In this document: positions 16,817 through 56,402 of the stretch, in pieces
How positions within the stretch are numbered: position 1 is the first letter of the stretch
Layout: the number at the start of each line of letters is the position of its first letter
Sequence record: PZ445488.1
Origin: a phage
DNA: 64,000 nt
Reading direction: 5' to 3' (one strand)
Notes under the pieces: generated by a model
Told to the model about the DNA's origin: nothing
Database searches by the model: none
What the model saw: the letters and a program-made list of their open reading frames with translations, nothing else
Program-made: the position numbers and the translations under genes

Positions 16817-17716
16817 TTATAGACCAGCTAACAGGTCATCGAGGTCGCCATCGTCAGAAGACGAGGAACTCATGAAGTCATCTTCAGTTTTTGCAGAACT
16901 AAAGGCTTCCATGTCTTTATCAAAATCGTCAAGGTCAGAAGCAACTTTATCTGCAACAGAAGCTGCTGCGGCTGCTGCACCACCAAGAGCGGCAGTACCA
17001 AGAACCTTAGCGAAAGATTCATTTAATTTTTCAAAGGACTTGAACTGGTCTTTAGCCGTCAAAGTAGTAAGGTCTACCATCTGGTCATATAGTTCTTTCT
17101 GGAATGCTTCGTCATTAATACGAGGAATTTCAGATTGACCCAAGAATTTAGATTCGTCATAGTTGCTAAAACCGGAAACCTGCTTAGCTTTCAGAACGAA
17201 GTTGGCACCTTCAAACGGGCAAGTAACATCAACCGGAGTTTCACCCATTTCGGTATCAACTGCAATCATTGCATTGATTTTGTCCCAAATCTTTTTACCG
17301 AAACGATATTTAAATACTTTACCTTCATTATCTGGAGCTTGAGGGTCTTTAACAACCAGAATATTAGCCCAATAAGAAGTTTTACGTTTCAGTTGAGAAT
17401 ATTCAGTTTTGTTGGTATTGTACAGGTCATTTTTACTAATGTACTGACATACAGGACAAGAGTCGTAATCACCATGTGTAGAAGAGCAATTTTCAATATA
17501 CCATTTACCATTTTTCTTGAAACCGTGGTTAACAAGAATTGCAAATGGTAGTGCGTCATCAGTTTTTGCTGGCAGGAAACGAATTACCGCTTGACCATTA
17601 CCTGATGCATCTAGCTTCAGCTTCCATTCGCCTTTATCTTCTGAAGAGAAACCTTTGTTACCGTTCAGTTTAGCCATTTGAGCAGCGAGGTCAGCAGTAG
17701 ATTTACGTTTAAACAT
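16817..17716 (-). CDS. 32: single-stranded DNA-binding protein gp32
   Basis: 299 aa; zinc-binding H-x-C-x-C-x-C region and acidic Ser/Asp-rich C-terminal tail; T4 gp32-like. Confidence 0.95.
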
Positions 17717-17800
17717 TATATTTACCTTTATTTAGATTATTTAGATTATTTAATTTATTTACAGTTGGTTGCTACGACACTTATACCTCGTAGCTGGTAT
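17717..17800 (-). promoter_or_regulatory. gene 32 translational operator (repeated AU-rich elements plus upstream stem/pseudoknot-like hairpin)
   Basis: mRNA leader contains stem GCUACGA...UCGUAGC followed by repeated UAAAUAA elements before the AUG; analogous to T4 gene 32 autoregulatory site. Confidence 0.45.
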
Positions 17801-17841
17801 GATTTATTTATAAAGTAATTTTAACACACAAGAAATAAAGC

Positions 17842-18495
17842 TTAATACTTACATGATTTGATTGTTTCTATGAACAATTTCTTAGCAGCATTTCCATCGA
17901 TTTGAAGTATTTTTCGATATGCCTTTAATTTGGTAGAATAATTTTGCCAGACTAAATTGTCAGTAAGTTCGTCATGCTTATCTATAATATTCAAGAATGA
18001 ATCCAACAACAAGAAGGTTTCAAATGAAATTATATTGCTTTGTAGCAATTTAAATATGTAGCTCGACTGAACTTTATTATTATAATCAAATATCTCTTGA
18101 AGCGCACTAACTTCCACTTTCTTACTGAAATAGTAGATGTTACGTACATCTTCAGCAAACGTCTCCTTGGCTTGTTTGAGACGTCCAATATATTCCCTAT
18201 AGAAAACTAATGCATCAGCGTCTGATATCTCACCAATCCATGCATCTTGGTTAGCAACTAAGTTACTGATGAATATCAAGGTGAGTTCCTTTAACTTATA
18301 TTTCTCTGCTAGTTTCTCAAAGAAATATTTATCTCGACGTTTTTGATACGCATTATCTGAAACACGCATGCACCAGTTATATTTGATTACGTCATACCGA
18401 CCATTAAAATGTTGTTTGCACATCAAGTATAGTTTGTATACCGATTTTCCGTTAATATAACGTTCTCCATCAGGAGGCATGCGTATTTTAATCAT
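17842..18495 (-). CDS. 59: helicase loader gp59
   Basis: 217 aa as in T4; syntenic next to gene 32. Confidence 0.8.
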   Translation of the reverse strand: MIKIRMPPDGERYINGKSVYKLYLMCKQHFNGRYDVIKYNWCMRVSDNAYQKRRDKYFFEKLAEKYKLKELTLIFISNLVANQDAWIGEISDADALVFYREYIGRLKQAKETFAEDVRNIYYFSKKVEVSALQEIFDYNNKVQSSYIFKLLQSNIISFETFLLLDSFLNIIDKHDELTDNLVWQNYSTKLKAYRKILQIDGNAAKKLFIETIKSCKY

Positions 18496-20065: not shown

Positions 20066-20073
20066 GGTATAAA
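20066..20073 (+). promoter_or_regulatory. late promoter TATAAATA for gene 34
   Basis: exact TATAAATA 33 nt upstream of gene 34 ATG. Confidence 0.6.
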
Positions 20074-25097: not shown

Positions 25098-25105
25098 TAT
25101 AAATA
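25098..25105 (+). promoter_or_regulatory. late promoter TATAAATA for genes 36/37
   Basis: exact TATAAATA 26 nt upstream of gene 36 ATG. Confidence 0.6.
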
Positions 25106-25131: not shown

Positions 25132-25788
25132 ATGGCCGATTTAAAAGCCGGAAGTACAGTTGGTGGTTCCGTCATATGGCATCAAGGCAATTTTCCTTTA
25201 ATGCCAGCTGGCGATGACATCCTATATAAAACATTTAAATTATACACCGAATATAACAAGCCAAAAGCGGCTGATAACGATTTCGTATCTAAAGCAAATG
25301 GTGGGACATATCTCAAAAAGGTAATCTTTAACGAAGGTGTTGCAGTCAAAACAGCAGATGACCAAACGAATGGTATTTTTTCTGGTGGTGGTGACGCCGC
25401 GACATTCGACCAAACAAACATGGATATTGTTTCGTGGTATGGTATTGGGTTTAAATCATCTCAAGGTACAGGTGAAAGAACTGTTGTAATTGATACTCGC
25501 ACCGGTAATATAAGTTCTAAAGGCGTTATTGAAGCATCTCAATTCAGAGCCACAACGTTAGCACCTTTAAATAATTACGACCTTACTCGCAAAGATTATG
25601 TTGATAGTCAAATAAATACAGTTAATGCTAATGCAAACAGTCGTGTACTCCGTTCAGGAGATACGATGACCGGCGCGCTAACAGCCCCAAACTTTTTCTC
25701 ACAGAATCCTGCATCTCAACCATCGCATGTTCCACGATTTGACCAAATTGTTATTAAGGATTCTGTTCAAGATTTCGGCTATTATTAA
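25132..25788 (+). CDS. 36: long tail fibre distal connector gp36
   Basis: 218 aa, syntenic. Confidence 0.8.
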   Translation: MADLKAGSTVGGSVIWHQGNFPLMPAGDDILYKTFKLYTEYNKPKAADNDFVSKANGGTYLKKVIFNEGVAVKTADDQTNGIFSGGGDAATFDQTNMDIVSWYGIGFKSSQGTGERTVVIDTRTGNISSKGVIEASQFRATTLAPLNNYDLTRKDYVDSQINTVNANANSRVLRSGDTMTGALTAPNFFSQNPASQPSHVPRFDQIVIKDSVQDFGYY

Positions 25789-54530: not shown

Positions 54531-54562
54531 AATTAACTCCTTTGTTGTTTAATTACAGGTGT

Positions 54563-54570
54563 ATTTATAA
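54563..54570 (-). promoter_or_regulatory. late promoter TATAAATA for soc
   Basis: exact TATAAATA on minus strand about 31 nt upstream of soc ATG. Confidence 0.55.
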
Positions 54571-54575
54571 CTTAA

Positions 54576-55097
54576 TTAGTAACCATTATCCTGACGTTCA
54601 AAGTTGTGTTGGTTTTTCAAGTAGTAAAGTTTAAAGATTTCTTCAGCCGAAAGACCTAGACCTTGGAACATATTTAGAACGAAATGCAGAATATCAATCA
54701 TTTCAAATTTAATTTCAAGCTGGTCTTCAGGAGACAGTTCATCAATACGACGATTTCGATATTCAGCATGTTGTGCCTTCCACGGCTTCCATACACTGCT
54801 GGCGGCTTTTTCACCATTGCTCATACCACCAAGTGAAGTCAGCAGTTCACGGAATTCATCATCAATATAATCTTTCTGATTACGCAGCCAATCAACAACA
54901 TCACCAGCAGTGGCCAATTCATCAGGATGTTTGTTATGTTCAGGCTTGTCATTTGCCAGACGAACCTGTAAAGATTTTTGCATATCAAGCATTACCTGCA
55001 GTGGGTCTTTATCTTCGTGAATCAGAGCATTAAAATAAGCTTCTTCTGCTTTATCAACACCAGAAATAAGTTGTGAACATTCATTAAAGTGCGCCAT
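54576..55097 (-). CDS. 56: dCTPase/dUTPase gp56 (MazG-like); start set at MAHFNEC
   Basis: MAHFNEC...DPLQVMLDMQ...ELATAGDVV.W.R.QKD.IDDEFRELLTSLG matches remembered T4 gp56. Confidence 0.85.
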   Translation of the reverse strand: MAHFNECSQLISGVDKAEEAYFNALIHEDKDPLQVMLDMQKSLQVRLANDKPEHNKHPDELATAGDVVDWLRNQKDYIDDEFRELLTSLGGMSNGEKAASSVWKPWKAQHAEYRNRRIDELSPEDQLEIKFEMIDILHFVLNMFQGLGLSAEEIFKLYYLKNQHNFERQDNGY

Positions 55098-55185
55098 TAT
55101 TTTTCCTTTCAATTCAGTATAAGAGAGTTAATTCTAACATTAATTTTATAAAGCGTAATAAATAATAGGTAACCAAGGAGATATT

Positions 55186-55383
55186 ATGTTTAAACTTCCA
55201 TCGTTAATCAACGCTATTAAAGGCAATAAAAAGAAAACTGCTATCGCTGCAATAGTTGTAGGCGGCATTATTTCATGGAACTTCGGGATTGCACCATTGT
55301 TAGTTGCCCATGGTATTATAGTTCCTTCTGTTCCATTGGATACTGTAGTTGATTTGGCCTTTGCTATTATAGGACTTGTTTAA
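55186..55383 (+). CDS. small hydrophobic membrane protein encoded opposite to flanking early genes
   Basis: 65 aa; strong ribosome-binding site AAGGAG 6 nt before ATG; two hydrophobic segments. Confidence 0.45.
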   Translation: MFKLPSLINAIKGNKKKTAIAAIVVGGIISWNFGIAPLLVAHGIIVPSVPLDTVVDLAFAIIGLV

Positions 55384-56402
55384 ATCTTCGAATAACGAGA
55401 TAATCTCATTTTAGCATGCAACCCACTTGAAATATTCTGTTTCATATATTCTAAAATTTCTTGTGGTGTTGCATTTTCTTTCATTACCATATCATTCACA
55501 TCCTTTGAACTCCATGGAGCTCGGTCCCAGAACATAACACGTTCGCCTGCATCTACTAATCGCTTCATACGAGCTATAGTATCCGGATGCCTAGGTTCAT
55601 TATCCATTACCCATACCCGACGTTCTTTAAATGGTACCACATCTAAATCTATTGAGCCGCCTGTAATAGCGATTGCGTTTGGTATGAATAAACTATCAAT
55701 AGGACCTTCCATTACCCAGACGTCTCCTTCCTTAACACGTTCAACACCATAAATTTTTGTTGCAGACTCAAAAGCTTTAATAGTGATATATTTCTGAGGA
55801 GCATCTTTGCGAAGTGCACGTCCTTGAAATGACTCAGCCTTCCCGTCTTTATTAAAAATAGGAATCACTAAACGCGGTTCTGGAATCTCTTTCTTATACG
55901 TGCCTGGTTGAATCTTGTTGACCAATTTAGGCCATTCTAATGTGAACCATAATCTGTTCCATGATTCTTTAGGAATACACCGGGACTTAACATATTTCAC
56001 AATAGGATGCTCTTCAGGCAACTTGTCCAGACGAGAACAAGACGGCAAAGAATTTATAGTCTTTTTCTCCGGTTCTGGTTTATGTTCAGGAACCTTTTCA
56101 ATCTTTGGTTCCATTCTAGCTTTTTCTTTACGAACTTCCATTAGATATTCACGATAAAGCTCTTCGTCATACTCTTTTAAGTATCCGGAAATTGTATTAT
56201 GATATTGACAGTTATAGCAATGCACATTACCTGGAGTACCGCCATAATACCATCCGCGAGCTTTCATTGCATCTGTCTGGGAGTCGCCACAAACCGGGCA
56301 TCGAAATGTTAATTTAAATGTGCTTGAATTATTGATTTGTCTAAAACGAGGTAGGTGAGAAAACGCACGATAAGCAAATTCATTATCTATCCATTCAGCC
56401 AT
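55380..56402 (-). CDS. 61: DNA primase gp61
   Basis: 340 aa; EWIDNEFAYRA...STFKL.FRCPVCGDS zinc ribbon and Toprim region match remembered T4 gp61. Confidence 0.9.
   Translation of the reverse strand: MAEWIDNEFAYRAFSHLPRFRQINNSSTFKLTFRCPVCGDSQTDAMKARGWYYGGTPGNVHCYNCQYHNTISGYLKEYDEELYREYLMEVRKEKARMEPKIEKVPEHKPEPEKKTINSLPSCSRLDKLPEEHPIVKYVKSRCIPKESWNRLWFTLEWPKLVNKIQPGTYKKEIPEPRLVIPIFNKDGKAESFQGRALRKDAPQKYITIKAFESATKIYGVERVKEGDVWVMEGPIDSLFIPNAIAITGGSIDLDVVPFKERRVWVMDNEPRHPDTIARMKRLVDAGERVMFWDRAPWSSKDVNDMVMKENATPQEILEYMKQNISSGLHAKMRLSRYSKI

Follow-up and report, generated by a model that had tools for sequence, protein, structure and literature searches.

A conserved opposite-strand gene of family phrog_2024 between genes 56 and 61 of T-even-type phages, probably late and membrane-directed

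Introduction

Does a 65-codon open reading frame (ORF) that runs against its neighbours in a T-even-type phage genome encode a protein, and if it does, when is the protein made and what kind of protein is it? The ORF occupies positions 55186..55383 of the plus strand (ATG start, stop codon included) in a 64,000-nucleotide stretch of phage DNA, sequence record PZ445488.1, which is referred to here in its entirety as the window. The ORF is a genuine, conserved gene under purifying selection. It is a plain member of a family that is already catalogued as phrog_2024 with the entry 'unknown function'. Taken as a whole, the explanation that we consider likely is that the gene is vertically inherited in T-even-type phages (Tevenvirinae), forms its own late transcription unit and encodes a single-helix membrane (or secreted) protein directed to the inner membrane.

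The small ORF is a conserved protein-coding gene

The product of the small ORF matches the phrog_2024 profile over its entire length (E 1.9e-27, 95.8 bits, residues 1–65 on profile positions 1–65 of 65) and belongs to subfamily A of that family. To examine selection, 15 distinct sequences drawn from Mosigvirus, Tequatrovirus and Gaprivervirus were aligned by codon. Of 66 columns per codon position, 46 varied at the first position, 22 at the second and 62 at the third, and the ratio of non-synonymous to synonymous substitution rates (dN/dS) within genera was approximately 0.04–0.2. Between genera synonymous sites are saturated, yet the proteins remain 45–55% identical. Synonymous and non-synonymous differences were enumerated by Nei-Gojobori counts and compared with the Fisher test. 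The window differs from locus L016 by 31.5 synonymous and 18.5 non-synonymous changes (p 8e-12) and from locus L005 by 13 and 4 (p 4e-6), while L014 and L016 differ by 37 and 24 (p 7e-14).

The signals for translation are conserved as well. A sequence-only reading of the window had proposed a plus-strand ORF of 65 amino acids preceded by AAGGAG at ideal spacing. The exact sequence and its ATG were recovered in the ORF list, and the Shine-Dalgarno AAGGAG, read from the sequence at 55175..55180 on the plus strand, lies 5 nucleotides (nt) upstream of the ATG. AAGGAG(G) or GGAGG is found at the same place in all orthologs.

Roughly 1000 Tevenvirinae genomes, representing at least six lineages, contain the gene. 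In the phage collection, tblastn matches to subfamily A were obtained in 693–750 phage records, with 122 matches for subfamily B and 163 for the JD18-type. Among Mosigvirus-level records there are 155 matches to the ORF (≥80% identity) and 155 to the primase (≥95%), so that every such record with the primase has the ORF too. The window is from a Mosigvirus (RB69-like); over the 2 kb around the small ORF its identity is 100% to Escherichia phage CEV1 and 97–99% to ~150 other Mosigvirus genomes. Named-genus members occur in Tequatrovirus, Mosigvirus, Gaprivervirus, Dhakavirus and Jiaodavirus genomes.

The position of the gene is constant: it lies on the opposite strand, between gene 61 and either gene 56 or the DNA adenine methylase gene dam, as checked in the window, mar005P1, T4, Gaprivervirus, Dhakavirus, Jiaodavirus, an Enterobacter phage and further loci. 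Members at this locus are 62–69 amino acids long and include VR7ORF033w, VR26_031/032 and hundreds of entries named 'hypothetical protein'. Synteny revealed opposite-strand ORFs of 63–66 amino acids in Dhakavirus (dhabil), Jiaodavirus (JD18) and the Enterobacter phage (MY742), and such divergent positional orthologs match phrog_2024 at E 1e-15 to 1e-28, as well as our own profile of the family. When 1.84 billion representative proteins were searched with a profile, only three full-length clusters at 50% identity were returned; the divergent subfamilies are absent from that result because their 25–33 bits are too low for a database of this size. A profile-seeded search recovered 120 clusters of 41–74 amino acids without informative protein names, and those with identifiable origins came from T4-like phages or from enterobacterial assemblies apparently containing one; most of their longest contigs measure 160–175 kb.

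A late-type promoter box precedes the gene

A late-promoter box, AATAAATA, is located at 55157..55164 on the plus strand, 21 nt before the ATG. It is the T4 late consensus TATAAATA with A at -13, and the transcript start predicted from it is at ~55170–55171. The late promoter of T4 consists of TATAAATA at -13 to -6, and a list of 50 T4 sites contains 32 perfect matches and 9 with A at -13 (PMC2988020). The variant with A at -13 is the most frequent one in T4 late promoters (PMC2988020; PMC1524935), and this position is poorly conserved in RB69 and other relatives (PMC1524935). A dRNA-seq study of T4 tabulates 150 phage transcription start sites, of which 22 are antisense (bioRxiv 10.1101/2024.04.04.588121).

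The box itself is conserved in an otherwise variable leader. An [N]ATAAATA box lies 12–33 nt before the ATG in 14/15 lineages, and its flanks cannot be aligned between genera. It reads GATAAATA in T4 (at ~17702–17709 of NC_000866, with a start expected near 17715), CATAAATA in Gaprivervirus and perfect TATAAATA in three other lineages. Where two paralogs stand in tandem, subfamily B before A, as in ESCO47-like phages, the box precedes the upstream paralog and not the A gene. VATAAATA is three-fold depleted in the 64-kb window (7 found, 21.0 ± 4.5 expected from shuffles), which suggests selection against stray late-promoter-like sites; perfect TATAAATA was found 7 times, with 7.5 expected. Together, the position and conservation of the box indicate that the gene is probably expressed late from its own gp55-type promoter. 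Since a conserved late-type box makes late expression likely, a role in the envelope or at the lysis stage is plausible.

The arrangement of box, Shine-Dalgarno and ATG also precedes soc and large plus-strand ORFs of the window. The closest regulatory analogy is soc, which likewise is transcribed late from a TATAAATA promoter of its own and sits within the same block of early genes. Its perfect box at 54562–54569 on the minus strand is 31 nt from the soc ATG (54530) and ~600 nt from the box of the small ORF, making it a second late promoter in the early block, on the opposite strand to the first. The analogy ends there, as soc shares its strand with the early genes, its product is a soluble protein that decorates the capsid, and it has no sequence relationship to the small ORF. 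Similar box layouts were seen at 20068 (1277-amino-acid ORF) and 29914 (223-amino-acid ORF).

The predicted protein has one long hydrophobic helix

The sequence-only reading described the ORF as hydrophobic, and the grand average of hydropathy of the 65-residue protein is 1.24. An AlphaFold2 model built from a 16-sequence alignment (mean predicted local distance difference test score 81) places helices at residues 3–11, 15–41 and 51–62. Residues 1–17 (55186..55236, plus strand) comprise a short amphipathic helix and the basic cluster KGNKKK, with a net charge of +5, and are predicted to form either a cytoplasmic N-terminus or the n-region of a signal peptide. Residues 18–41 (55237..55308, plus strand) form a hydrophobic helix, either a transmembrane segment or the h- and c-regions of a signal peptide, with a Kyte-Doolittle mean of 1.9. 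Residues 42–65 (55309..55380, plus strand) are the hydrophobic tail HGIIVPSVPLDTVVDLAFAIIGLV, which has two conserved acidic residues, the short helix 51–62, a Kyte-Doolittle mean of 1.7 and a net charge of -2. Across the family the net charge of the N-terminus is +1 to +6 and that of the tail -2 to 0. Because of this charge distribution the positive-inside rule predicts a cytoplasmic N-terminus and a periplasmic tail.

In 28 diverse members W31, N32 and P37 are invariant, and A39 and P47 are nearly so. The invariant Trp-Asn pair in the middle of the helix suggests binding of a membrane protein or self-association. The best conserved stretch between T4 and Mosigvirus is the tail. At the end of the helix the window protein reads P-L-L-V-A followed by H-G, which by the -3/-1 rule resembles a signal peptidase I site, and the family motif at this point is P-x-[A/L]-x-[A/S/T] followed by [H/N/Q]-G. 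With one usable tryptic peptide, the protein should be nearly invisible to tryptic proteomics.

A late inner-membrane protein as the preferred explanation

According to the explanation that we prefer, the gene would form a small transcription unit of its own on the 'late' strand within a block of early and middle genes. The gp55-type box AATAAATA would start a transcript at ~55170 whose 16-nt leader carries AAGGAG, and the protein would be made late. The 65-residue product would go to the inner membrane with its basic N-terminus in the cytoplasm and residues 18–41 spanning the membrane. The hydrophobic, acidic tail of 24 residues would then be periplasmic and would remain anchored or, less likely, be freed by signal peptidase I. 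The Trp-Asn pair within the helix would serve to bind another membrane protein or to self-associate.

Several observations weigh against this explanation. In subfamily A no box carries the consensus T at -13. With the closest box only 12–15 nt from the ATG in JD18 and the Enterobacter phage, a transcript there would begin at or inside the Shine-Dalgarno. No intrinsic terminator was found downstream of the small ORF, and a late transcript would therefore continue into gene 61 in antisense orientation. The ratio of non-synonymous to synonymous differences per site (pN/pS) is 0.15–0.36 in the antisense frame whose wobble positions coincide with those of the ORF, and 0.10–0.22 in the ORF frame; because the two are nearly equally low, dN/dS alone cannot fix the coding strand. 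Finally, no family of known function matched in Pfam, NCBIfam, PADLOC, a sequence profile search of the PDB or a Foldseek search of the PDB, so any function assigned to the protein is a guess. Foldseek against BFVD returned only members of the same family.

Is the tail cleaved or anchored?

The alternative that survives best is a variant of the preferred explanation, possible although clearly the less likely outcome. In it residues 1–41 would be a cleavable Sec signal peptide from which signal peptidase I frees the 24-residue tail, HGIIVPSVPLDTVVDLAFAIIGLV, as the active peptide, which would enter either the periplasm or the outer leaflet. A basic n-region, a hydrophobic core and a helix-breaking proline at -5 are consistent with this, and every ortholog has a small or aliphatic residue at -3 and -1. 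With a slash at the candidate site, the motif is A-I-A/HG in T4, A-L-A/HG in Gaprivervirus, A-S-A/HG in JD18 and L-V-A/HG in the window. The conservation of the tail between T4 and Mosigvirus, alongside a core that has diverged as signal peptides do, points the same way. Precedent comes from the T4 antiholin RI, whose comparable c-region SPSIEA/N is cleaved, as demonstrated experimentally, and in which an aliphatic residue at -3 is tolerated (PMC8385771). Conversely, the hydrophobic stretch of 18–19 residues with a 5-residue c-region exceeds the usual length in cleaved signal peptides and is more reminiscent of a signal anchor; this length also counts against the cleavage option of the preferred explanation. 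Furthermore, an invariant W31-N32 inside the core is unusual for a disposable signal peptide, and many subfamily-B members have threonine at -1.

Both RI and, by prediction, the small-ORF protein are small T-even envelope proteins whose N-terminal hydrophobic segment ends in S/A-P-x-x-x-A before a polar residue, and the T4 homolog reads SPVAIA/HG where RI reads SPSIEA/N. RI differs in possessing a 73-residue soluble domain that binds holin T, whereas the small-ORF protein has only the 24-residue hydrophobic tail. The basic n-region of the latter is also much longer and its core more hydrophobic (Kyte-Doolittle 1.9–2.4 compared with 1.38 for RI). Homology to RI was rejected, as BLASTP gave a non-significant E of 0.31 over 6 residues. 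A SAR domain was also considered and rejected. The fraction of Gly, Ala, Ser and Thr is 0.17–0.42 and the mean Kyte-Doolittle value 1.3–2.4 across the family, which is neither consistent nor weakly hydrophobic.

Is it a toxin or holin?

The sequence-only reading likened the architecture to small membrane toxins or lysis-timing peptides. What stands of this is a small hydrophobic gene with a strong ribosome-binding site on the strand opposite to its early and middle neighbours; nothing found here supports a toxin or lysis-timing peptide, with no match to a holin or toxin family in Pfam, NCBIfam or PADLOC, no charged C-terminal tail, no adjacent lysis gene and no detectable similarity to RI. A holin-like or type-I-toxin-like protein that depolarizes the membrane and sets or modulates lysis timing is, in our estimate, unlikely. 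Small size, high hydrophobicity, a single helix and probable late expression, as predicted from the box, are all compatible with it. Antisense control is conceivable too, since the ORF is antisense to read-through transcripts of gene 61. No specific small RNA was identified as a dedicated antisense partner, and Rfam gave only a chance sub-threshold miRNA match in gene 56.

Two database records label homologs 'holin', but no reproducible profile match lies behind these labels and the 'Holin' of BFVD and UniRef is a member of the same family. Scans of Pfam and NCBIfam at E up to 10 yielded no holin match for the window, T4, Gaprivervirus or subfamily-B proteins, and a PADLOC scan yielded no match to the small-ORF protein. 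A trace of Ldr_toxin below the cut-off was seen for a single homolog, P0007 (E 0.1, 13.1 bits, cut-off 27), and none for the window protein.

Holins, for example T7 gp17.5 and lambda S, end in a hydrophilic C-terminus rich in charge, and the majority cross the membrane at least twice. The small-ORF protein shares with these small holins its size, its phage origin and, by prediction, a late membrane character, but it carries its charges at the N-terminus, ends in a hydrophobic C-terminus and has one hydrophobic helix. T4-type phages already use a holin, the 218-residue holin T. The window has an ORF of 218 amino acids, starting at 25132, behind a perfect TATAAATA (25098–25105, plus strand, 26 nt before the ORF); its size is that of holin T. 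The small ORF is not linked to any lysis gene. Type I toxins such as Ldr, Hok and TisB are also short, hydrophobic, single-helix peptides encoded opposite overlapping transcripts. They differ in context, which here is a probable late gene of a lytic phage and not a chromosomal or plasmid toxin-antitoxin locus.

Is the selected product an RNA, or is it on the other strand?

It is improbable that the selected product is a late antisense RNA, acting in primase shut-off or through collision with early transcription, with the ORF secondary. With no terminator found downstream, a late transcript must run into gene 61 antisense, and several genera retain the 4 nt that the two convergent genes have in common. 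An RNA role would leave unexplained the purifying selection at the amino acid level, the conserved ATG and Shine-Dalgarno, the hydropathy that is retained at 20–27% identity and the tandem protein paralogs. The two roles are not mutually exclusive.

Still less probable, to the point of being very hard to defend, is that the conservation belongs to the minus strand, as a read-through extension of the primase or another minus-strand coding element. The frame in phase with gene 61 is stop-free over 55186–55380 in the window, Mosigvirus, T4 and ESCO47, and its pN/pS is low. A low antisense pN/pS is nevertheless expected as a by-product of the wobble positions held in common with the plus frame. 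In a six-frame control the frame of the small ORF was open in 12/12 lineages, whereas each of the other frames had stops in some. The antisense frame in question has 1–2 stops in 6/12 lineages (Gaprivervirus, L014, Dhakavirus, Jiaodavirus and the Enterobacter phage), and in Gaprivervirus a further gene stands between the ORF and gene 61. Of seven pairs compared, five have the lower pN/pS in the plus frame, including 4/4 Mosigvirus-type pairs; in one T4-group pair, L002 and L007, it is slightly lower in the antisense frame (0.10, compared with 0.14). A start codon and a ribosome-binding site are conserved for the plus frame alone.

Following the antisense control, dN/dS was rejected as sole proof of the coding strand, and strand was assigned on stop codons, the start codon with its ribosome-binding site, and synteny. 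Since the antisense frame is interrupted by stops, lacks a conserved start and is separated from gene 61 in Gaprivervirus, the plus strand is the coding strand. The stop-free antisense frame past the gene 61 stop is probably a by-product and not a read-through extension.

That the ORF arose by chance in a spacer conserved for promoters or signals of genes 56 and 61 has next to no probability left and is effectively refuted by the codon-position pattern of 46/22/62, saturated synonymous sites with a conserved protein, a frame open in all lineages and orthologs that keep length and hydropathy at 20–30% identity, even though a sigma-70-like minus-strand match lies in the region and the curated T4 reference annotation treats it as non-coding.

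Neighbouring genes and transcription signals

The small ORF is flanked by gene 56 (dCTPase/dUTPase; 54576..55097, minus strand), which is divergent, and gene 61 (DNA primase; 55380..56402, minus strand), which is convergent. Both were identified by PHROG and Pfam matches and from the way they are annotated in a phage of 97.6% identity. The ATG codons of gene 56 and the small ORF are 88 nt apart. More distant neighbours are soc, modA/modB, sp and imm, on the minus strand throughout, and the claim of the sequence-only reading that all neighbours lie on the minus strand is true of all substantial neighbouring ORFs. Its placement of the ORF in the gap between genes 56 and 61 needs one amendment. 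The ORF does lie between both genes, but its 3' end is not confined to the gap: the sequence and the ORF list show that the TAA stop codons of the small ORF (plus strand) and gene 61 (minus strand) overlap in a shared palindrome, TTAA, at 55380..55383. The same 4-nt overlap occurs in T4, Dhakavirus and the Enterobacter phage, while the Gaprivervirus gene that overlaps gene 61 is the second paralog.

A sigma-70-like match, TTGATT-17-CATAAT, lies on the minus strand at 55183..55211, inside the 5' end of the small ORF (9/12 consensus positions). It points toward gene 56 and may be its promoter; sigma-70-like matches are not enriched relative to shuffled sequence. If the promoter is real, an early promoter and a late gene occupy the same DNA.

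The interval toward gene 56 varies among Tequatrovirus genomes. Three (L006, L009 and L010) are without dam, and the small ORF adjoins gene 56 as in the window. In two other loci (L002 and L007) dam is present, and in T4 dam, together with segF, is inserted between the small ORF and gene 56. The late box and the ORF are kept with or without dam.

Paralogs, remnants and absences

The family has two paralogous subfamilies, A in T4, Mosigvirus and Gaprivervirus and B in Dhakavirus and many Klebsiella phages. Most other genera have one of the two only. Tandem pairs occur as A then B in Gaprivervirus TH41 and VR26 and as B then A in ESCO47-like relatives of Mosigvirus; the coordinates of the pairs are 2001–2198 and 2207–2407 in L011, 995–1192 and 1201–1401 in L031, and 1805–2008 and 2001–2198 in L016. 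In the B-A arrangement the last 8 nt of the B gene are shared with the start of the A gene, which suggests translational coupling. In some Gaprivervirus genomes all that is left of B is a decayed remnant. Phages CJ20, EAWsc9, RZ and SP18 contain a decayed B remnant, and because of it a 118-nt gap precedes the primase. A hidden Markov model search of all six-frame ORFs revealed no paralogs elsewhere in the window.

No family member was found at the locus in the Winklervirus, Krischvirus, Biquartavirus, Lazarusvirus and Slopekvirus genomes that were checked. Krischvirus KFS-EC has an unannotated post-primase interval of 590 nt (L022 2230–2820) containing no phrog_2024 member and no convincing ORF. 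Truncated or frameshifted copies were seen in phage ERS-1, T4_ev240 and several short metagenomic contigs (L013 1992–2162; P0034–P0038).

Annotation of the family

As a sequence feature the small ORF is ordinary: the annotations of hundreds of related genomes already include it as a hypothetical gene, and PHROGs has clustered it. Its annotation is uneven. The T4 homolog, 66 amino acids long and 54% identical, lies on the plus strand at 17738–17938 of NC_000866 between dam and gene 61 (L002 3739–3939). RefSeq NC_000866 does not annotate it and leaves the 309-bp dam-61 interval non-coding, and automated annotation of another T4 record does call it. The exact T4 protein sequence is represented in the protein collection only from read-archive assemblies. 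Records of JS98, JS10, IME08 and SP18 have no coding sequence annotated over their copies. Since the T4 reference and these four records are without the gene, analyses based on reference gene lists would miss it.

Some of the names that homologs carry are misleading (L018 2529–2729, P0130 and L017 2001–2198 are among the entries concerned). They include 'dCTP pyrophosphatase' in phage dhabil and in Salmonella phages, 'DNA packaging ATPase' in Klebsiella phage SAKp28, 'holin family protein' in EAWsc9 and 'Holin' in the UniRef entry for OE5505. Full-text literature searches found no paper on the small ORF. A 2025 paper on in-silico 'holins' was considered and concerns a different family.

Possible functions and significance

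Our best guess, a tentative one that could easily be wrong, is that the protein acts at the cell envelope late in infection, in lysis timing, lysis inhibition or superinfection exclusion. A more specific proposal is a long shot: phrog_2024 proteins might be precursors of a short hydrophobic peptide exported late, or a membrane partner of the holin/antiholin or exclusion machinery. If true, this would add an unrecognised component to T-even lysis inhibition, superinfection signalling or envelope remodelling. That 60 years of T4 genetics did not bring such a component to light would be due to its tiny size, its lack of annotation and its near-invisibility to tryptic proteomics.

The combination seen here is rare among T-even genes: the gene is nearly universal in Tevenvirinae, appears to have a late promoter within a block of early genes, and encodes a product predicted to be membrane-bound or secreted. 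This combination makes it a cheap and well-defined target for knockouts addressing lysis inhibition, superinfection exclusion and late envelope events. The chief practical point is twofold, a gap in the T4 reference annotation and a clean knockout target.

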